DNA of 64,000 nucleotides, from positions 160,001-224,000 of the IMG/VR virus record IMGVR_UViG_3300009709_000002. The stretch is one strand, 5' to 3'. The position numbers were made by a program, and so were the translations under genes. Numbering within the stretch: the stretch's first letter is position 1; every line of letters begins with the position of its first letter. The notes beneath the pieces were generated by a model that saw only the letters and a list, made by a program, of their open reading frames with translations, was not told the origin of the DNA and made no database searches. Of this stretch, positions 3,942-47,335 are shown in pieces. Source of the DNA: a virus (Duplodnaviria; Heunggongvirae; Uroviricota; Caudoviricetes).

Positions 3942-5041
3942 CAGAATGACAGAAGAGTGGCCGCTGTCTTAGCTGCAAGAAGCGGATTCGGCACATTTTC
4001 CTTCAAATCCCAACGATAGAATTTACGGCCAAGGTGAACTGAGCGCGGGCGCTCCATGTAGGTGTTCATGAACGCTACGCCATCCATCTTGTACCATTCT
4101 TCCGGCCATTCAAAGATTGACCAACCAGCGTGCTTAGCAGCCATCTCACGGAGACCATCGATGAAAACGTTCAGAACCGCTTGACGTTCTGCACGAGTTC
4201 CAGTGAATGGAGTGCCTTTATACCAACCAGCTTTTGGAAGTACGCGAGATTCGTCTTCGATCGGAAGCGGAGTAACCAGCTCGATCGGACGATCAAGCGC
4301 TACCAATGCTTGCTCATAGTCCCGAAGCAGCTCTTTCGTGAAAGCGATCGGATCAGCTTCACGGCAGATATGGTGACGAATGTCAATGCTTCCCCAGTAG
4401 CACGTCATCGAGTCAATGTTCTTCATATCGAAGCCATATTCCGTGATTTCATTCACGATACCCTTCTTGATGATACCACGAAGAGTTCGGCCGTCTTTAC
4501 GGAGAACGAGGGATGTCGGCTTGTAGGCCGAGAATGAGTGTGAGTCACCGATCACCAGGTGTCGAACCTTACCATTGCCATACGTCAAGCCTGGATCTAA
4601 GATCCAATCGGTGATGCCTTTGCAGCGGTCGGAAACCTTCGCCCAGTCCACGCCCTTCCAGTAGTCAGAAGGAGTTCCCTTCTTGATACCACAGCGCCAG
4701 CCGTAGTCGATCATCGGCCAATCAAGCGAGACGTATTTGATGTGGTCATGCTGTGGCCAAGCGAGACGTTCAAAGAACTTCGCCGAGTGCGGTGCAAGAC
4801 CGTCAAATACGTTCAAAACCTTACAAGCTGGTGTGTAATCGACGTCCATGCCGTGATAGATGTAGATCGTGTCATATTGACTCCAATCATCTAGACGAGC
4901 TTCACCACGTTGGTCAAGCACATCTACATCGATGCCAACATTTCGAAGTTGATTAGCGCGGAGCCAAGCCCAGGCCGCGGTGTGTGAATATTCAGTTGAT
5001 GCCAGCTTACGGCAAATCAGGTCAAGTGCAGCTTTAGCCAT
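3941..5041 (-). CDS. SGNH/GDSL-like domain protein, possibly a DNA- or sugar-modifying enzyme
   Basis: LVIGDSH (block I), YWGSIDIRHH (block III-like) and RSVHL (block V-like). Likely start ATG 5041, overlapping the upstream stop. Confidence 0.6.
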   Translation of the reverse strand: MAKAALDLICRKLASTEYSHTAAWAWLRANQLRNVGIDVDVLDQRGEARLDDWSQYDTIYIYHGMDVDYTPACKVLNVFDGLAPHSAKFFERLAWPQHDHIKYVSLDWPMIDYGWRCGIKKGTPSDYWKGVDWAKVSDRCKGITDWILDPGLTYGNGKVRHLVIGDSHSFSAYKPTSLVLRKDGRTLRGIIKKGIVNEITEYGFDMKNIDSMTCYWGSIDIRHHICREADPIAFTKELLRDYEQALVALDRPIELVTPLPIEDESRVLPKAGWYKGTPFTGTRAERQAVLNVFIDGLREMAAKHAGWSIFEWPEEWYKMDGVAFMNTYMERPRSVHLGRKFYRWDLKENVPNPLLAAKTAATLLSF

Positions 5042-11511: not shown

Positions 11512-13062
11512 TTAGAACACGAATGGAACCGGATCTCCACCACCATACTCATCTTCACCAGTCGAGTCAAGATCGTGATGGTAGAAGTCTCCTTCTGATT
11601 CATACAGCTTCGTGAAGACTTCTGGCTCATACTCTGACAGCTGCTTGATGATCTGTGCTACGATCAGCATCGCCGAGATCAAGTCATCATGTGCACCAAA
11701 TTTTGCGGTGTAAGCTGCACCAGAACGAACGTACGTCTTCAGTTCCTTGATGAGCGGGCCAGAGTTGATGACCAAATTGTTCTTGGGCTTTTCAATCAAC
11801 GTCTTCAATGTCTTACACGCGAGAGCCTTCGACTTACCTGAGGTGTTGATACCAAGCTTTTCACCGATCGAGACAAGCTCAGCTTCGTGTGGGAAGTGCT
11901 CATCATTGTTGAACAGTGCAGAGATAGCCGCACCAACCGAGTTGTTTTCAAATGACCAGTGAACACCTGGCGGCTTACCTGCGTGATTGCGATATGACAG
12001 CAACTTTTCGCAGATCCACTTTACCGCAGCGTAGAGCTCAGGTTCCTTGATGCGGTTTGAACGAAATTCAGCGATCTGGAACATCGTCTCAAGCTCAACT
12101 ACCTGGATGACAGAGTAGTCTTTGTTCATACCTTGAGCCACGTCGATACCCACAATGTAGGTCATCTTTGCCGATGGTTCCTTCCAGAACACGAAGCCGT
12201 GATCCTTCATGAATGGCTCTGCGAAACGCAGATTTGCTAGCGTGATCGAGTTGATCAGCAAGTCATCTGAAGAAATGAATTCACACTCATATTCCTGCAG
12301 CCACTTTTCTTCACCGATCTTACGGATCATCTCCTGCTTGTAGGTCTCAGTGCGCTCCGGGTGTTCATTCCATAGAACTTCAACCGGCACAAAACCATTT
12401 AGGCCAGACTCTGCTTCTCGCCAGATCTTGGCAAACAGGTCCATGTCGCCGTTAGGCGTGGAGGATATGATACAAGAACCACCAGTCGAGATCGTTGGCG
12501 CTAGTGAGGTCCACATTTCATCTTGGATTCGATTCTGAACGAACGCCAACTCGTCAAGCATCAGCAGGGAGATCGAACGACCACGACCAGTGTTTTCAGT
12601 CGTTGCAGATGAAGTGATGGTAGAATCATTGTCGAATTCAACTGAATGCTTGTTGAATGCCTTAGCTCCCGGCTTCAACCAGTCTGGAAGTTCTTCATAA
12701 GCGTAGCGGATGCGGTTCATAATGTCGATCGCACCAGCGTTCTTGTTCGATGCAACCATGATGTACTTGTCGAAGTGGAAGCAAGCGAACCAAAGCAGAT
12801 ATGCTGCGATGACAGTTGACTTACCAAGCTGTCGGCCAGCTTTGACAACGCACCAACGATTTTCCTGGAAAGCGCGGATGCATCGAATCTGATAGTCAAA
12901 CAGCTCAAGCTTCAGCTTTCCCTTCTTTGGGTGCTGAACGTACATGTAGTTGCTGATGAAGTAGACTGGATCCAGTCTACATCTTTTAAGCTCTTGTACC
13001 TGCCAAGCATTATACTCGGCTTCAGTATTTGGCTTCTTGATTAACTCATTCTTATTTGTCAT
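11512..13062 (-). CDS. gp17: Terminase large subunit
   Basis: GRQLGKS, LMLDELAF, SSTPNG, GIDVAQG and HDDL. Start ATG 13062 follows GGAG. Confidence 0.96.
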   Translation of the reverse strand: MTNKNELIKKPNTEAEYNAWQVQELKRCRLDPVYFISNYMYVQHPKKGKLKLELFDYQIRCIRAFQENRWCVVKAGRQLGKSTVIAAYLLWFACFHFDKYIMVASNKNAGAIDIMNRIRYAYEELPDWLKPGAKAFNKHSVEFDNDSTITSSATTENTGRGRSISLLMLDELAFVQNRIQDEMWTSLAPTISTGGSCIISSTPNGDMDLFAKIWREAESGLNGFVPVEVLWNEHPERTETYKQEMIRKIGEEKWLQEYECEFISSDDLLINSITLANLRFAEPFMKDHGFVFWKEPSAKMTYIVGIDVAQGMNKDYSVIQVVELETMFQIAEFRSNRIKEPELYAAVKWICEKLLSYRNHAGKPPGVHWSFENNSVGAAISALFNNDEHFPHEAELVSIGEKLGINTSGKSKALACKTLKTLIEKPKNNLVINSGPLIKELKTYVRSGAAYTAKFGAHDDLISAMLIVAQIIKQLSEYEPEVFTKLYESEGDFYHHDLDSTGEDEYGGGDPVPFVF

Positions 13063-40416: not shown

Positions 40417-41250
40417 ATGAATCCACTATTAGCAAAAGTAAAGCTCCCAGGTCGAGTTTTCCAATTTCCATCAAAAGGTCTTTTCTACGGTCCAGGCATC
40501 TTTGCTCCGCACGTAAAAGATGGTGAAGTTGAGGTGAAGCCGATGTCAGCTCTCACTGAGTTGAAGCTTCGCTCGCCAGATCTTTTATTCTCCGGTAGAG
40601 CCTTGGTAGAAGTTTGTGCTGAGTGCGTACCAGACATTCTGCAACCTAACAAGCTCGTCACAAAAGACGTTGACGCATTATTCTGTTTCCTGAAGGTTTC
40701 GACCTATGGAAGCATCATGAACATTTCATCGATCCACCGTTGTCCAGATGCGAAAATCCACCAGTATGACATCAACCTGGAAACCATCATCGGTTCTCCA
40801 AACAATGCGTCACTGGATAGCCGTGATGTAACATACAGAGTGACGCTGTCAAATGGTCAACGTGTAAAGCTGCGTCCAGTTTCTTTTGAAGATTCACTGA
40901 AGTTGAATCACATTCGCCAGGATCTTCAGCGTGGTTTCGAAACGTCAGGTAATCGTGATCCAGCGAACGCAGAAGTTGAAAAGCTGCTGTTGGTCGATCT
41001 GCTGTCAGTTATTGAAGGTGTAGAGGCTCAGATTGAAGGGACGGAATCCACGACTTTGATTACTGACCGCAAGTTGCTTGAAGAATGGGCTAGACAACTA
41101 CAACGTAAGTGGATCGATGAGCTATCAGCTCAAGCAGTACGTGCTGATGAGTGGGGCTACTCAATGAAGACGAAGCTGAAGTGCAAGGACTGCGGAGAGG
41201 AATACGTACACGACATCGAGGTAGACCCGATAAATTTTTTCTTCGGGTAA
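40417..41250 (+). CDS. gp26: Baseplate hub assembly protein (gp26-like)
   Basis: FPSKGLFY, VKPMSALTE, DVDAL...STYG and C-terminal CKDC...PINFF. Confidence 0.8.
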   Translation: MNPLLAKVKLPGRVFQFPSKGLFYGPGIFAPHVKDGEVEVKPMSALTELKLRSPDLLFSGRALVEVCAECVPDILQPNKLVTKDVDALFCFLKVSTYGSIMNISSIHRCPDAKIHQYDINLETIIGSPNNASLDSRDVTYRVTLSNGQRVKLRPVSFEDSLKLNHIRQDLQRGFETSGNRDPANAEVEKLLLVDLLSVIEGVEAQIEGTESTTLITDRKLLEEWARQLQRKWIDELSAQAVRADEWGYSMKTKLKCKDCGEEYVHDIEVDPINFFFG

Positions 41251-41483
41251 TCGGATCAGGTGATCAAGCAGTAATCGCCGAGATGATGCGTGCTTTCACG
41301 TCAGCAAACGAGCAGCTGATAAACTTACTCATTCAGCTGCAGTACTACATGAGAGGCTCTATGTCAAGAGATGACGTTTGGGCTCTTACTCCTTCTGAGA
41401 GAGATCTCTACTTGGAGTTCATCAATAAGCGATTCAAAGAAGCCGGTGAGATGATAAAGAAGCAGATTCCTGTCTTCTTATAA
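41235..41483 (+). CDS. gp51-like baseplate hub assembly protein; possibly expressed by -1 frameshift from gp26
   Basis: YYMRGSMSRDDVWALTPSERD. Lies in the -1 frame of gp26, overlapping it at T TTT TTC; the first ATG is at 41283. Confidence 0.7.
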   Translation, partial: FFLRVIGSGDQAVIAEMMRAFTSANEQLINLLIQLQYYMRGSMSRDDVWALTPSERDLYLEFINKRFKEAGEMIKKQIPVFL

Positions 41484-41500
41484 AGCCCGAAAGCCAATGA

Positions 41501-41529
41501 AACAAAGCCCGCAAATCGCGGGCTTTGTT
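41501..41529. terminator. Terminator hairpin
   Basis: 12-bp stem AACAAAGCCCGC / GCGGGCTTTGTT. Confidence 0.75.
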
Positions 41530-42147
41530 GAATGTCACGCCAGTGACATATCTGTTAGCTAAAATGCTACCAGTCCATTTGATCTAACTGGCGATTGCCT
41601 GCGGCATCGCTCGCTTCGCGAAGTTTTTCTTTTTCTGTGTGGCGGCGAAGCCGATCTATGAAAAGCTTTTCTATCATATTACGCTTTTCAAGCATAAACT
41701 TGCGCCGGCTAGGGCGCTGACAAAAGTCCCCAAGGACTACTTCTTCACACTCTAGGACCTAAGTCCAGCCAGCCCAGGTTACGCTTTACCTGGCAACCCT
41801 CACGGGTTTCGTGTGATCCGCATACGTAGACGCATTCCTAAGAGAGCTATAAGAAGTAATTTGCTCTCCTACCGCAAAGTTGTTTAAGCTTTGCATCTGG
41901 GAAATTTATTTGTTAGCTTACACTAGCAAATTCTGGCGAACTGCAAGGGACATGCAGCAGATTCTTCTAAACGAGACTTTTCTTTTTCCCGATCCGTACC
42001 AGAGGCCTTTTCAAATCATTGCAACAAATGAAGTGATGGTCCCACAGGGCACAGATCTGTGGGTGGCCAAGCGTGCAGGTTAATGACTCCATGCAAGCCG
42101 ATATTTTTTGACGAGGTTGCGTGTTCTGTGCCGGTGTTACTTACTAC
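41530..42147. ncRNA. Hairpin-dense non-coding region (large ncRNA or replication origin candidate)
   Basis: No convincing ORF; more than a dozen consecutive short inverted repeats. Confidence 0.5.
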
Positions 42148-42555
42148 TTATTCTTCAACCGGAACTTCAGAACCTTCAAGCTCGAAAAGAACGAATGTGA
42201 GAGCGCTACTACCGCTACCGATCGTGCTGACCAGAATTACTGCAAGATTTTCCATGCTAGTTTCATAGACGAGAGTTGGTTCAATAACTCCAGCGTCATC
42301 AGCATTGAACACCGTGATGCCAACATCCAGCTCAAGCTCATCGTTGCCGTTGACTACATCTTCAAACAAGACGGACCAGAAGGCCGCATTGCGTGGAAAT
42401 GATGTGGTGAGTGTGAGCTGAGGAGTAGTTTCGCCAGAAGGATCATTGACGAATTCTGCATGTTCTAGCGATTCATTCAGACCATCAACGAATCCTTGAA
42501 AGTAGTCGCTAGTACCTTCAGACAGCTTGAACGTGTATTTGACTTGAGTAGACAT
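42148..42555 (-). CDS. Highly acidic hypothetical protein
   Basis: 135 aa with about 24 D/E versus 3 K/R. Confidence 0.7.
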   Translation of the reverse strand: MSTQVKYTFKLSEGTSDYFQGFVDGLNESLEHAEFVNDPSGETTPQLTLTTSFPRNAAFWSVLFEDVVNGNDELELDVGITVFNADDAGVIEPTLVYETSMENLAVILVSTIGSGSSALTFVLFELEGSEVPVEE

Positions 42556-42852
42556 TTAGGCTTCCTGATTTTCTTCGATGAATTCTGCTTTTTCCATGGC
42601 GACGTTCTGACCTTTGAAGGTCTTCTTGAGCGTTTGGTACATGGATCGTTTCGTGCCGGGGAGATTGATGAGCTGACCTGAGGAGATCTTGACATTCTCA
42701 ACCTTACCATCTTCCGTAACATTGAGCATTTTGCGGGCGCGGTTTTCGATCTCAAAATACTGATGATCGATCGCCGGTTTACCTTCCGCGTCTACTTGGT
42801 TCGCCGCTTGACGAACCAGCTTACGCATAAGCTTTGCTTTCTTTGCGTTCAT
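42556..42852 (-). CDS. Hypothetical protein
   Basis: 98 aa with a basic N-terminus; in operon orientation. Confidence 0.7.
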   Translation of the reverse strand: MNAKKAKLMRKLVRQAANQVDAEGKPAIDHQYFEIENRARKMLNVTEDGKVENVKISSGQLINLPGTKRSMYQTLKKTFKGQNVAMEKAEFIEENQEA

Positions 42853-42873: not shown

Positions 42874-43476
42874 TTACTGCTTGAGTTTCCACCAATCTAC
42901 ATCTGCTAAAGCAACATCAAGCTCGAAAATCGTGATGAAGTAAATACTACCATCATCCTGTTCTCTAACCATCAAAACTTGCTGCTTCGTACCTTGCGGC
43001 AGCTTCGGCTTAGTGCTAACACCGTCTTTCTCTGTCCATGATGTGGCACAGAAGGTTTTTGAACGATTGAACTTGAAGATAAGCAGCGGAATTTTCTTGA
43101 GCTTTTCAGCATCGCCTTCTGCCTGCTTCATCCAACCTTCAATCTTGGAACCTGTCAGCAGGTACTCAAGATCATCAATCGTCTTGTAAAACTTGCACTC
43201 TAGGGAGAATGGGAATTTCCAACCCTCTGACTTGAGTACATCGGATTCATTGGACGGAACAACGTCGCCGATGAACAAGGTCATTGCTTCGATCGAAAAA
43301 TTTTCGAGCATCTTAGCATTCTGACCACCGAGAATAGCACCTGAGGATTGCGAACGACGAAACTTCATGGGCGCAAGAACTGTTGAAAGTTTCTTGGCGA
43401 TTGAATTTTCAAAGCCTGAACCTTTGGCTTTTGAATTGACGCGTTTTTTCTTTACTTCTGGTGTAGTTTCTGTCAT
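42874..43476 (-). CDS. Holliday junction resolvase (Hjc-like PD-(D/E)XK)
   Basis: NSKAKGSGFE, RSQSSGA, GDV and LECKFYK. Confidence 0.82.
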   Translation of the reverse strand: MTETTPEVKKKRVNSKAKGSGFENSIAKKLSTVLAPMKFRRSQSSGAILGGQNAKMLENFSIEAMTLFIGDVVPSNESDVLKSEGWKFPFSLECKFYKTIDDLEYLLTGSKIEGWMKQAEGDAEKLKKIPLLIFKFNRSKTFCATSWTEKDGVSTKPKLPQGTKQQVLMVREQDDGSIYFITIFELDVALADVDWWKLKQ

Positions 43477-43585: not shown

Positions 43586-45328
43586 CTAGTTATCGATTTG
43601 CATCAGCTGCGAGAAACCACCATCTTTTCTCACGGCGATGGTCTTATCACACCGTCCTTCGAACTCTGGTCGGTGTGAGATGATGTAAATGCAGATACTG
43701 TCATCCCAAGCCTTCGTTTTCAGCAGGTGTATCAATGCATCAATGCAGTTGGTGTCCAAGCTACCACCATCGACCTCATCTGTGAACAGAACATTGACTC
43801 TAGAGTGCAAGTACGTCAATGTGTCACGGAACGCTAAGCAGAGAGAAAGATTTAATCGTTTCTTCTCACCGTTAGAGAGGTTGCCGTGATCTAGAGATCG
43901 GTTGTACTGTGAGATCTCACACGACATATCAGGCATGAAGTTAACAATGTGCGGCAGGTTCAACTTTTGCGTGTAGTAGCCGATGCGTTTATTCAAGAAT
44001 GGAATGTTCTTGGAGATGATGTCTTTACGAATGAACGAATTTTTGTCGGTCAGCAGCTTCACCAGTACTTGCTGGTGGTTAAGCAACCTTACAAGTTCAT
44101 CCAGAGCGGCATAATCGATCTTGATCTCACCCTCATTGACTAGAGCGTTGAGAGCTTCGACGTGAGGATTGTCTTGGTTAGCCAGCTCGATCATCTTAGC
44201 GTTCAGCGTATCTGTGCTAGCTTTGATCTTTAGCAGCTCTGAAAGATCATTGTGCTTGATCTTCCCTTCAATAGCTTCGATCTCATCATTGATTCGATCT
44301 ACTTCAATCTCATTGTTCGTCAAGCTTGCGAAGATAATTTCTCGTTCAGAGACTTTCACAGCGATCTTTTCACGAAGCTCAGCGATCTTAGCTTCAGTGT
44401 CTTCAAACTTTTGCAAGCAGTACGGACACTTTGCCTCGATCAGGTGGCCAAGCTCATCAGATAGCTTCTGCAGCTCTTTCTTACGAGCATCATTATCAGT
44501 CTTCTGAGTGCGAACTTCCTGCTTCAACGGTGAAAGTTTCGTCGTGAGCTTCTTTAGCTCTACGTGAAGAGCTTCCTCAGCGTCAAGATCGATCCCAGCG
44601 ATGCGATCAAGCTTCGCTTGAATTTCCATCAGCTGCGCATCACGGGTCATCGTCCAACGTTTAACCCGCTCTTTTGCTTCATCTACGTGACGGTGATATG
44701 TCTTGTTCTGAAGTTCTTGCTGAGCAATCAACGTCTTCTGCATGTCGATAGCTCGTTCTGTCAGGCCGATTTCACGCTTCTGAGCGTTTGCCTTACGAGA
44801 CAACGTAGTGATGCGGAGCAGCTCTTCGATCAAATTACGTTGTTCACCGACGCCAAGATCCAAGAATGGACGAGCGTTACCGTTGAACATAACCACTAGT
44901 GAGAATAACTGGAATGACATTCCAAATACTTCTTCAACCTTGTCATTGAAGTTGACGATCGAGTCAGGCGTAATGTCAACACCATTTTCCCAAAGTTGAA
45001 CAGAATTACGATCGCCTCGAGTGCGACGGACGATGTACTCATCTTCACCTTTTGCAAAGTAAAGATTGACTTCCATCGTTGTATTTTTCTTCTCATTCGT
45101 GCGGTTGATCAACTTATCCTTGCTCACGCCAGATGGAATCTTGTCATAGAGAGCGTAGGAGATAGCCGAAATAACCGTCGTCTTACCAGACCCAGAGGAT
45201 CCACCTTCGTCAAGGTTTTCACCGAGAATGAAGTTGGTTCCTGGAGTCTTTAGATCTACTTCCGTCATCAAATTGCCGAAGCTCATGAAGTTGCGGAATG
45301 TTACTTTTTCAAAAATTATATGCTTCAT
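43586..45328 (-). CDS. gp46: Recombination exonuclease ATPase subunit (SbcC/Rad50-like)
   Basis: NFMSFG, GSGKTT, CPYC zinc hook, LSNGE, FTDEVD and ISH. Confidence 0.95.
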   Translation of the reverse strand: MKHIIFEKVTFRNFMSFGNLMTEVDLKTPGTNFILGENLDEGGSSGSGKTTVISAISYALYDKIPSGVSKDKLINRTNEKKNTTMEVNLYFAKGEDEYIVRRTRGDRNSVQLWENGVDITPDSIVNFNDKVEEVFGMSFQLFSLVVMFNGNARPFLDLGVGEQRNLIEELLRITTLSRKANAQKREIGLTERAIDMQKTLIAQQELQNKTYHRHVDEAKERVKRWTMTRDAQLMEIQAKLDRIAGIDLDAEEALHVELKKLTTKLSPLKQEVRTQKTDNDARKKELQKLSDELGHLIEAKCPYCLQKFEDTEAKIAELREKIAVKVSEREIIFASLTNNEIEVDRINDEIEAIEGKIKHNDLSELLKIKASTDTLNAKMIELANQDNPHVEALNALVNEGEIKIDYAALDELVRLLNHQQVLVKLLTDKNSFIRKDIISKNIPFLNKRIGYYTQKLNLPHIVNFMPDMSCEISQYNRSLDHGNLSNGEKKRLNLSLCLAFRDTLTYLHSRVNVLFTDEVDGGSLDTNCIDALIHLLKTKAWDDSICIYIISHRPEFEGRCDKTIAVRKDGGFSQLMQIDN

Positions 45329-46407
45329 TCATCCGTTCCTGCGTCTGACGGCAGCAGCTTGTAAAGCTCGATAAGCATGTTCACGTCGATGTTCTTCAAC
45401 GTTTTATCGTCTTTCATACCGCTGAGGGCAGCAACGACAAGCTCATCGATCGTGGCACCACCGTCTAAGTTTTCACTAACCTTGGCATTATCACCCTCAA
45501 GCAGACCTTGCTTTGCTTCACGATCTTCCTCGAGGATAAAATCACGTAGGTCATATGTCGAAACCATCGCATCACGAAGCTCTTGAGCTTCAGAGTAAGC
45601 GAGGTCGATGTCGATGACGCATTTTACCTTCATGCCGCTAACTGGTGCCCAGTTGTTGGCCATTACATCTGAAAGATTGACCTTCAGGTACTTCGGGCAC
45701 GCTTCCCAGTCGATGAACGAGACGACATTCTCAAGCACTTCATATACGCACATGCCACGTTGGAAATCACCAGCATCACCGAAGTCCATCGGGAAGGTGT
45801 TGCCGATGTAGACGACGTTGTCTTTGGCTTGGCGCTTGTGGAAGTGCCCTGAGAAAATTTGATTGGGTCCTGGGAACAGCTTATGGTCTGGGCCATGCTC
45901 TAAAATAGTGTTGTAGCCCGTAACAAAGAAGTTCTGAAACTCGAAGTGACCAGCAAAAGCCCAAAGATCATTGTACTGAATGAGATCTTTGTACTCGTGA
46001 TCGAACAAGTACGGTGAGAACAAGATATTGTCGATGACTTGTGGTTTGTCAATGACAGTAAAGTTCTTCAGCTCTCCGAACATGCGGACAGAGTGAACGT
46101 CGCGAGTGGTGCGACGGTGTAAGTCATGGTTGCCAACGATAAAGAAGATCGGAATGTCTAGCTGGTCTAGCATCACCAGCCCTTCATACGAGTAGTCCAT
46201 CGTTTCAATGTTGATGGCTGAACGAGATTCGAACCAATCACCAAGGAAGGCTAGGTGTGTGACGTCACCAATTCTGCGAACTTCATCACAAAACCACTTA
46301 ATGAAGTTCAAACAGTCTTGATTGTGTACTTTTGAGTTGTTTCGCTTGCCGAAATGAATGTCGGTCATCATGGCAAGCTTTTTGATTTCTGACGGCTTCT
46401 TAAGCAT
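45325..46407 (-). CDS. gp47: Recombination nuclease subunit (SbcD/Mre11-like)
   Basis: TDIHFG, LGDWF, GNHD, GHF and SGHFH; start ATG 46407. Confidence 0.95.
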   Translation of the reverse strand: MLKKPSEIKKLAMMTDIHFGKRNNSKVHNQDCLNFIKWFCDEVRRIGDVTHLAFLGDWFESRSAINIETMDYSYEGLVMLDQLDIPIFFIVGNHDLHRRTTRDVHSVRMFGELKNFTVIDKPQVIDNILFSPYLFDHEYKDLIQYNDLWAFAGHFEFQNFFVTGYNTILEHGPDHKLFPGPNQIFSGHFHKRQAKDNVVYIGNTFPMDFGDAGDFQRGMCVYEVLENVVSFIDWEACPKYLKVNLSDVMANNWAPVSGMKVKCVIDIDLAYSEAQELRDAMVSTYDLRDFILEEDREAKQGLLEGDNAKVSENLDGGATIDELVVAALSGMKDDKTLKNIDVNMLIELYKLLPSDAGTDE

Positions 46408-46723
46408 CGGGAGCGTGTCTGTCCAATTCACGAATGAACTTATCGTATGCATCGATGAGTACGTCGGCTTGAGCCTGAAGGTTTTCAGCCTCTCGACGCT
46501 TCAGAAGAGCTTCATCACGCTTACGCATAGCATCTGCTCTAATTCTTTCGGCGTTAATTTTTAAGCTGTTGTATTCATCTTTTGACATATTTGGGTCTAT
46601 CGTTATAGTTGTTGGGTTGCTCCAGCCAAACCAATCTTCACAGGGCAGTGGGCCGCCTCTTTCTCGCCGCATTATGGCAAGTTGTTCACGGCACCATCGT
46701 GGTTCATCATCAAGAACTGACAT
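46400..46723 (-). CDS. Hypothetical protein
   Basis: 107 aa, closely packed between gp55 and gp47. Confidence 0.65.
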   Translation of the reverse strand: MSVLDDEPRWCREQLAIMRRERGGPLPCEDWFGWSNPTTITIDPNMSKDEYNSLKINAERIRADAMRKRDEALLKRREAENLQAQADVLIDAYDKFIRELDRHAPDA

Positions 46724-46726
46724 GAC

Positions 46727-47335
46727 TTAGTCATTCATCGGTTCTTCAAAGTTGAAATACTCTGTGACTGCTTTTGCATCTACTGTTCCAAGCAGCGCTG
46801 CTTTTTCAGCATCAGCAATCGCTTTTTGTTCAGCTTCATTTTTAACACGTTCTTTAGCATCAACGATGTTCTGCTTCATTTCTTCAAACTCAGTCTTGTA
46901 TTCACCGCCATCAGCTTGTTCGCGGGCAGCGTCTGCAAAATTATAGCTTGGGTTTTCGCCGAGGTCGATGAGAAGTTCATCACGAATGCGACGGTGCTTC
47001 TTCTCATGATTCAAGAACTGCAGGAAGGTATTGTTGATGCAGGTGGTGTAGAACGAGAATGGATTGTCTGAGCGTTCAGGATCAAACTTGAGAGCATTTT
47101 GGCATAGGTTGGCCAAAGCTTCACAGATCATATCCTCTTTGAATGAGTACCCAGAGAAGCAAGGACGTTGTGCATACTTACGAGTCAACGTCATCAGCAT
47201 CACTGCAAGTTCATTCGTTATGCGATTCAACTTCTTGCAGCGAATAACCTCAGGGAGAAGTTTCGCGTTTGTCAGGTAATACTTGCCGACAAATTCCGGC
47301 GTATTTGGGTTTTTGGCCCGCTTGGCTGCTTTCAT
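46727..47335 (-). CDS. gp55: Late transcription sigma factor
   Basis: YYLTNAKL, FSGYSFKEDM and KFDPERSDNPFSFYT; consistent with the many TAAATA promoters. Confidence 0.9.
   Translation of the reverse strand: MKAAKRAKNPNTPEFVGKYYLTNAKLLPEVIRCKKLNRITNELAVMLMTLTRKYAQRPCFSGYSFKEDMICEALANLCQNALKFDPERSDNPFSFYTTCINNTFLQFLNHEKKHRRIRDELLIDLGENPSYNFADAAREQADGGEYKTEFEEMKQNIVDAKERVKNEAEQKAIADAEKAALLGTVDAKAVTEYFNFEEPMND

Follow-up and report, generated by a model that had tools for sequence, protein, structure and literature searches.

The longest gene-free interval in a 64-kb stretch of a jumbo phage genome (the window; positions 160001-224000 of a 360,227-bp virus record bearing direct terminal repeats) is, on comparative evidence, a genuine RNA gene. 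The interval, 41484-42147 in window coordinates, appears to encode a folded RNA of ~630 nt on the minus strand, and its central part identifies it as a probable, much enlarged homologue of EGFOA RNA (Rfam RF02955; Weinberg et al. 2017, PMC5737381) rather than a wholly new class. The explanation that best accounts for our results, and that we consider probable, is a stand-alone minus-strand gene whose ~630-nt product is built on an EGFOA-type core, acts in trans as a stable particle and serves as an accessory aid to infection.

The interval spans 664 bases between a plus-strand open reading frame (ORF) ending at 41483 and a minus-strand ORF ending at 42148, and no gap between ORFs of at least 90 amino acids (aa) in the window is longer. 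This agrees with the original prediction for this DNA, which described a gene-free, hairpin-dense locus between convergent units; all of the motifs it listed are present where it placed them. No ORF of at least 40 aa in the gap holds its position or frame in L001, an IMG/VR contig whose PDDEXK protein is 93% identical to that of the window. DNA identity to L001 is 94.3% over 41698-41908, 88.6% over 41909-42127 and 78% in the 3′ domain of the RNA, whereas the flanking protein genes reach only 55-85%, below the RNA core. Identity then drops to 24% over 42128-42147, leaving a sharp edge at 42127/42128. Differences between the two sequences in stems are compensatory: GAGAGC/GCUCUC becomes GUGAGC/GCUCAC, GCAAAG/CUUUGC becomes GCAGAG/CUCUGC and, in the 5′ domain, CCCACAG/CUGUGGG becomes CCCGCAA/UUGCGGG. 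The interval also folds better than its dinucleotide shuffles (z = -3.81 for the plus and -3.62 for the minus strand, with none of 20 shuffles equally good), bearing out the prediction that the locus is structured.

The RNA is most readily read in the minus sense, from ~42127 down to the terminator, because two pairing features are biased to that strand. In twelve family members we counted 11 hairpins of 4 bp with a GNRA or UNCG loop in the minus sense and 1 in the complementary classes, and the core helices contain 15 G-U against 3 A-C pairs when read in the minus sense. Two cUUCGg loops are also present in L001 when it is read in the sense of the window's minus strand. These counts supersede the earlier impression that G-U pairs favour neither strand.

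We compared the 211-nt core across 13 sequences in a model-based alignment (A8), which replaced MAFFT alignments (A3 and A4) that were structurally inconsistent. Eight nested helices (H1-H8) and two pseudoknots (PK1 and PK2) place 97.9% of cells in standard pairs, compared with 31-40% in slid controls in which partners were moved by 1-3 columns. Both sides have changed at 43 of 52 pairs, and none of 500 shuffles matched the observed value. All pairs of H4 covary, and H3 appears elsewhere as UGCUC/GAGCA or CACGUG/CACGUG. Several stems named in the original prediction are likewise supported by compensatory changes in relatives, namely GCAAAG/CTTTGC (H1), GAGAGC/GCTCTC (H2), AGTCC/GGACT (H7), CTGCA/TGCAG (hairpin Pc of the 5′ domain), CCCACAG/CTGTGGG and ATGTCAC/GTGACAT. 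Two others gave way to better pairings. The proposed CCAGGT/ACCTGG stem is invariant in sequence and is better described as the 17-nt loop of the covarying H5, with its bases engaged in two pseudoknots, and the long-range GGGAAA/TTTCCC pairing competes with PK1 and shows no consistent complementarity across relatives (judged by eye, uncounted).

The pseudoknots tie the H5 loop to two strands upstream of it. PK1 is preserved through compensatory variants, CCUAG/CUAGG in L154 and UCCAG/CUGGA in the Ralstonia jumbo phage RsoM2USA, which is the cultured phage nearest to the window by gp46 (38% identity). PK2 is replaced within A8 by ACUG/CAGU and AACG/CGUU, in other EGFOA-type loci by GUAG/CUAC, CUGG/CCAG, UCCG/CGGA and CGUG/CACG, and in a genome locus by CUAG/CUAG. 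Counted over viral, metagenome and genome loci, this gives eight partner sets, which for a 4-bp helix is strong support at the sequence level for PK2. Of the 118 motif hits in the viral, metagenome and genome loci that we fetched, 30 have both loop-complementary upstream strands. From this complementarity, the PK1 and PK2 strands are predicted to pair with the 3′ two-thirds of the 17-nt loop in a single, interrupted helix. The unpaired parts are also constrained: a GCGUC segment, the 17-nt loop and the AAAUGUCC loop of Pc are invariant.

Conserved domains flank the core on both sides. Model R3, which covers 104 nt of the 5′ domain (window 41921-42026) including helix Pa and hairpins Pb and Pc, recovered 13 members, comprising all twelve training sequences and, at 40 bits, L133 from outside the training set. 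Pairs of the 5′ domain are formed in 80% of cells versus 29-51% in slid controls, with double changes at 14 of 16 pairs. By eye, no consistent covariation links the AAAUGUCC loop to a GCGGA(A)CAC junction. R3 found no match next to compact EGFOA loci, and the 5′ domain therefore appears specific to the jumbo-phage form. On the other side of the core, motifs of the 3′ domain are common to L090, L067, L147, L149 and RsoM2USA (by eye). The RNA is followed by a two-way terminator-like hairpin whose stem in L001 carries three compensated pairs and one G-U/A-U change; a simple terminator scan did not call this hairpin (41501-41530). We placed the ends of the RNA from conservation (42127) and from the terminator.

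Table 1. The RNA gene, its parts and the neighbouring genes in window coordinates
Feature	Position	Strand	Remarks
Whole RNA gene, ~630 nt	41497..42127	-	L001 identity step; homologues from models R1/R2/R3
5′ domain, ~220 nt	41909..42127	-	model R3, covariation
5′ domain hairpin CCCACAG/CUGUGGG	42041-42063	-	compensated in L001
Long-range helix Pa	42003-41999 with 41936-41932	-	in model R3
Hairpin Pb	in 5′ domain	-	in model R3
Hairpin Pc, conserved AAAUGUCC-like loop	41960-41941	-	in model R3
EGFOA-like core, 211 nt, H1-H8 and two pseudoknots	41698..41908	-	models R1, R2; alignment A8
H1 GCAAAG/CTTTGC	41874-41894	-	compensatory changes at 6/6 pairs
H2 GAGAGC/GCTCTC	41839-41871	-	compensatory changes at 9/9 pairs
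Outer helix H3 CACAC/GUGUG, enclosing H4, H5, H6	41746..41815	-	5/5 pairs covary
H5 GCCAG/CUGGC, closing invariant 17-nt loop GUAAAGCGUAACCUGGG	41768..41794	-	stem covaries at 4/5 pairs
H7 AGTCC/GGACT	41725-41738	-	covaries at 5/5 pairs
H8 GCGCC/GGCGC	41702-41717	-	near-invariant stem, loops variable
PK1 CCCAG with CUGGG of H5 loop	41901-41897 with 41777-41773	-	paired in 13/13
PK2 UACG with CGUA of H5 loop	41828-41825 with 41783-41780	-	paired in 13/13; 3/4 pairs double-changed
3′ domain, ~170 nt: several hairpins, AGCGA(C/U)(A/G)GC-like motif, A-rich stretch	41532..41697	-	L001 78% identity
Two-way terminator-like hairpin, 13-bp stem	41501..41530		between RNA and convergent plus-strand ORF
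Baseplate-hub gene	40417-41250	+	Pfam T4_baseplate, PHROG baseplate hub; converges on RNA
110-aa ORF overlapping hub gene by 100 nt	41151-41483	+	convergent neighbour downstream of RNA
135-aa ORF (ORF135), no family match	42148-42555	-	final gene of gp55-gp47-gp46-PDDEXK strand
Small ORF	42556-42852	-	between PDDEXK gene and 135-aa ORF
PDDEXK nuclease	42874-43476	-	neighbour gene
gp46	43586-45328	-	T4-like neighbour
gp47	45325-46452	-	T4-like neighbour
gp55 late sigma factor	46727-47335	-	T4-like neighbour

Searching cultured phages with the region and its surroundings by megablast and blastn returned nothing, and Rfam gave no gathering-level match over the 64-kb window; its weak local match was EGFOA, at 27.3 bits over 41763-41810 on the minus strand (model positions 54-101). 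We scanned viral, metagenome and genome collections with the loop motif, using short exact patterns only. Most matches to the loop pattern are chance, and a subset shares long flanking similarity. The loose pattern GGTAAAGCNNNACCTGGG occurs at 110 loci in viral contigs, about the chance expectation by our own estimate, and judging from their sequences only pattern loci with the upstream complementary strands appear to be real. We discarded L115, L119 and L122 (Pirellulales metagenome-assembled genome, MAG) as chance matches or coding sequence. With R1, a covariance model built on the 211-nt core, we obtained matches over the full length in L120, L090, L067, L082, L117, L065 and L116 and further matches in the 5′-truncated L118 and in RsoM2USA. 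The score of the RsoM2USA core (251994-252196 of its record) rises from 44 bits with R1 to 121 bits with R2, a broader model. This copy falls in a 1.4-kb gap without any annotated feature (record 251624-253024, or L123:12296-13696), with the 5′ domain at 12544-12654 and the core at 12666-12868 of L123; blastn with the gap found that phage alone, plus short chance matches. RsoM2USA is a published 344-kb lytic phage genome, and its genome paper makes no mention of non-coding RNA other than tRNAs.

An alignment of hub proteins allowed us to fetch 80 further loci from contigs of phages in the 300-400-kb class. Twelve of the 80 carry the RNA, including the lineages L147, L149 and L154/155 and the divergent L133, and R2 and R3 together found no copy in the other 68. 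The L133 copy (L133:5280-5674, minus strand) follows the hub gene within a gap of 1.1 kb and scores 40 bits with R3 and 10 bits with the R2 core; similarly diverged copies may hide among other apparent non-carriers.

The core of the window RNA follows the EGFOA consensus block by block. The two share, in order, uuCCCAG, then (C/G)CGUC with a 4-nt pseudoknot strand, an outer helix (8 bp in the EGFOA consensus), a small hairpin and the 17-nt-loop hairpin. The last of these is the EGFOA hallmark, a 5-bp stem with the 17-nt loop GUAAAGCnnnACCUGGG; it is found at 41768-41794 of the window, with a loop identical to GUAAAGCnnnACCUGGG apart from three free positions. The EGFOA topology, in which the outer helix encloses the small hairpin and the 17-nt-loop hairpin, is reproduced by H3 around H4 and H5, with H6 extra. 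The 5′ single strands of EGFOA, uuCCCAG and CGUC+NNNN, are complementary to the halves of the loop and correspond to the strands of PK1 and PK2, and this complementarity is visible in the Rfam consensus line too. The two forms differ chiefly in size. Compact EGFOA has ~110 nt and a short linker between the pseudoknot strands, whereas the window RNA has ~630 nt and a 56-nt insertion in this place consisting of H1 and H2 (41839..41894). H6 is inserted in the junction, H7 and H8 are added 3′, and conservation extends ~220 nt 5′ and ~200 nt 3′ beyond the EGFOA-like part. Three inserted hairpins and the flanking family-specific domains explain the score of 27 bits in the window; full-model alignments to EGFOA gave 37.5 bits for L116 and 30.8 bits for L120, both below the cut-off of 37.7. 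Both forms are found in phages and mobile elements, where the gene-free gaps that hold them are unusually large, and neither has a known function, although the window form, unlike EGFOA, has a fixed site beside the baseplate-hub gene of T4-like jumbo phages. The original prediction of an undescribed large non-coding RNA thus holds in part. Covariation in 13 sequences supports a large structured RNA, and the whole ~630-nt molecule with its 5′ and 3′ domains matched no Rfam family other than EGFOA; the central 211 nt, as a relative of EGFOA, cannot be called undescribed.

EGFOA of the compact kind was also found in viral contigs, at 44.7-78.8 bits overall and 72-79 bits for bona fide members. 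These loci (L103:6911-8320, L098, L112, L022, L033, L095, L018:8896-9305 and L094) lie in gaps of 0.4-1.4 kb; L022, L033 and L095 are bona fide EGFOA at 72-74 bits, and the other listed loci have the full motif signature. In one compact group the neighbours are a 1925-aa protein on one side and a family-B DNA polymerase on the other; another group lies beside the small and large terminase genes. Conservation within a group extends upstream of the motif, and the compact loci too may be parts of longer RNAs. At L205:3807-4961 (MAG contig JAJYBI010000004.1), EGFOA scores 38.7 bits at 4387-4514 on the minus strand of a 1.15-kb gap, flanked by genes for an SRAP peptidase, an HNH endonuclease and an ArdC-like anti-restriction protein. 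The setting resembles a mobile element, and the 174-kb contig was binned as Deltaproteobacteria.

The genomic position of the RNA is fixed, and its presence is not. In 12 loci and RsoM2USA it has the gp46/nuclease module on one side and the convergent hub gene on the other. The syntenic conservation that the original prediction named as a check is seen as a homologous RNA with covarying helices at the same junction. The upstream ORF varies among carriers, the window's 135-aa ORF (42148-42555) having a homologue in L001 only, and none of the neighbouring ORFs is specific to loci with the RNA. In 73 of the loci examined, both with and without the RNA, the hub gene is followed by a homologue of the 110-aa ORF. 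The gap after the hub gene measures 355-1290 nt in carriers, mostly at least 660, versus mostly 60-430 nt in non-carriers. In a hub-protein tree of 70 rows, the 13 carrier rows require 6 parsimony changes, of which the starred branches alone force at least 4, and one clade of six, including RsoM2USA, is all-carrier. A search that recovers the RsoM2USA copy gave no match anywhere in complete genomes of non-carriers (345 and 359 kb), and R2 found no copy over the whole genomes of XacN1, RAS14, Atu_ph07 and Xoo-sp13. This distribution identifies the RNA, as far as sequences can tell, as an accessory gene with several losses or moves in its history. The neighbourhood itself is T4-like in gene content and the genome is that of a jumbo phage; the element is not AT-rich, with a GC content of 46%.

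How such a gene might act is suggested by its relatives. By cryo-electron microscopy, two compact EGFOA RNAs assemble without protein, one as a trimer with a hexamer class and the other as a strand-exchanged dimer (preprint, bioRxiv 10.64898/2026.07.01.735769). We propose that the window RNA would be produced in infected cells, with transcription beginning at a start of its own or continuing through from the gp46/nuclease early-middle unit, and that its transcript would end at the two-way terminator. It would then act in trans as a stable folded particle, a reading drawn from the shared core, the strong conservation at unpaired positions, how large the added domains are and the fact that related phages do without the gene. 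By analogy, we infer that this particle may be self-assembling or protein-binding; a scaffold of this kind would be its likeliest mode, since compact EGFOA forms trimers, hexamers and strand-swapped dimers in vitro, and the extra arms would present lineage-specific surfaces. The RNA would aid infection in some hosts; as complete genomes of close relatives are without it, we favour such an accessory aid over a central part in replication or assembly.

Several points weigh against this explanation. The RNA gene is predicted from sequence, and the promoter search recognised no promoter directly upstream of it in the window or inside the element. The 27.3-bit EGFOA match in the window is local and falls short of the gathering cut-off of 37.7. 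The nested helices sat in the model that made the alignment, which inflates the 97.9% paired; the pseudoknots, which lay outside that model, and the slid controls are the cleaner tests. The oligomerisation of EGFOA was seen for compact forms, in vitro only, in a preprint (bioRxiv 10.64898/2026.07.01.735769). The insertions between the pseudoknot strands could alter assembly, and covariation cannot tell whether PK1 and PK2 pair within one molecule or between protomers.

A more specific proposal, which we advance tentatively and regard as possible rather than likely, is that the RNA is the protomer of a phage-made assembly, with the EGFOA core as the interface and the added domains and hairpins building a larger, ornate particle. 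If true, phages would carry a third kind of RNA nano-assembly in addition to ROOL and GOLLD, with the task of sequestering or organising some component of the host or the phage while a jumbo phage infects, and the Rfam EGFOA motif would be the shared core of a wider phage RNA superfamily with interchangeable peripheral domains. ROOL and GOLLD are large, ornate, phage-associated RNAs that form RNA-only cages. Like them, the window RNA has several hundred nucleotides and many helices, is borne by phages or prophages, is accessory and is without known function, making an analogy for self-assembly plausible. Unlike them, its core has a different fold and no tRNA genes neighbour it or occur in the window. 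The known classes named in the original prediction were not found: at E≤10 over 41000-42600, Rfam contains no match to ROOL, GOLLD, RNase P, tmRNA, group I or II introns or ribozymes, leaving the weak EGFOA match, and ARAGORN detected no tmRNA or tRNA in the window. We also considered RNase P on account of a P8-like GCCAGGUAA..CCUGG and a GAAAGUCC-like loop, which we take to be features of that RNA, and rejected it; no model matched at E≤10 and the order of the motifs differs.

The alternative that survives best, unlikely as we think it, is an element acting in cis as the long 3′ untranslated region (UTR) of the gp46-PDDEXK-ORF135 message, where it would block exonucleases or insulate against collision of convergent transcription. 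It gains from the short distance of 20 nt between the stop codon of ORF135 and the conserved region, from the lack of a promoter found there, and from the two-way terminator between convergent units at the end of the element. With this spacing and no promoter recognised, read-through followed by processing is possible in the window. The nearest sigma-70-like site (43565-43537 on the minus strand; TTTACA, 17 nt, TAGAAT) is located upstream of the PDDEXK gene, and transcription from it could run on into the RNA; no TATAAATA late-promoter boxes occur in the region. Other carriers, however, have a strong terminator hairpin between the upstream ORF and the RNA (L090, L147, L149 and L154). In these four loci, a (U)UACACUCAUAUUC-like motif lies 0-8 nt past the U-run of the upstream terminator and precedes the first conserved hairpin (GAGUCnnUAACC); it is absent from the window and L001 and could mark the 5′ end of the RNA or be a phage-specific promoter. 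Terminator hairpins also lie 3′ of the RNA in L067, L082, L123 and L154, and no same-strand gene follows it in carriers. Terminators together with the lack of a following same-strand gene therefore favour a separate, trans-acting RNA gene over a leader or 3′ UTR. A cis role is further opposed by the different upstream ORFs of carriers, by compact EGFOA in unrelated contexts (DNA polymerase, terminase, mobile element) and by non-carriers, which handle the same convergent junction with gaps mostly of 60-430 nt; ~630 nt with two pseudoknots and invariant loops far exceeds what a 3′ block needs.

It is also doubtful, and we think quite improbable, that the double-pseudoknot core with its invariant unpaired bases is the catalytic centre of a ribozyme performing self-cleavage, processing or another reaction. 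The invariant 17-nt loop, GCGUC segment and AAAUGUCC loop would suit such a centre, and the complex pseudoknotted fold is within the size range of large ribozymes. The published EGFOA structures, however, are described as assemblies, with catalysis unreported (bioRxiv 10.64898/2026.07.01.735769), no Rfam ribozyme or intron matched at E≤10, and we saw neither a conserved cleavage-site signature nor exon-like flanks.

The original prediction had offered as its second possibility an element acting as DNA, that is, a replication origin with an R-loop or a single-stranded hairpin site with primase signals. The element is indeed the largest non-coding gap, is rich in inverted repeats and beats shuffles on both strands, and it resembles T4-type origins in being non-coding DNA near recombination genes in a T4-like genome. 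T4-type phages use R-loop origins, and at T4 oriF and oriG a middle promoter and an unwinding element lead to the R-loop; these origins are short, and covarying helices or pseudoknots are not what defines them. In the present element it is RNA pairing that is constrained. The covarying pseudoknots and long-range helices are RNA features, the RNA-type tetraloops are one-stranded (11 versus 1), terminators flank the element in relatives, and the core has its homologues in an RNA family for which RNA structures have been solved. Cumulative GC skew, proposed as a sign of an origin, makes no turn at 41-42 kb, no iterons or tandem repeats were among the features seen, and the complete 345- and 359-kb relatives dispense with the element. 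We consider an origin very improbable. Least credible are hidden small protein genes, for although four ORFs of 41-67 aa are mechanically present (including a 67-aa plus-strand ORF at 41880-42083 and ORFs of 41-42 aa), none is kept in place or frame in L001, and substitutions between the two sequences are paired compensatory changes in stems rather than changes at third codon positions.

The probable trans-acting RNA gene described here belongs to a rare kind. Large intricate RNAs without a known job are few, and earlier ones led to ribozymes, riboswitches and RNA cages. The orphan EGFOA motif is now tied to phages through RNAs of 72-79 bits in several viral contigs, and, as the window RNA suggests, it can be the core of an RNA six-fold larger. 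The annotation can be corrected accordingly: the "empty" 1.4-kb gap of RsoM2USA and similar gaps in phage genomes of 300-400 kb are probably RNA genes. As RsoM2USA is a cultured lytic phage that carries the RNA at a locus left blank in its annotation, the role of this RNA in jumbo-phage infection is open to experiment.

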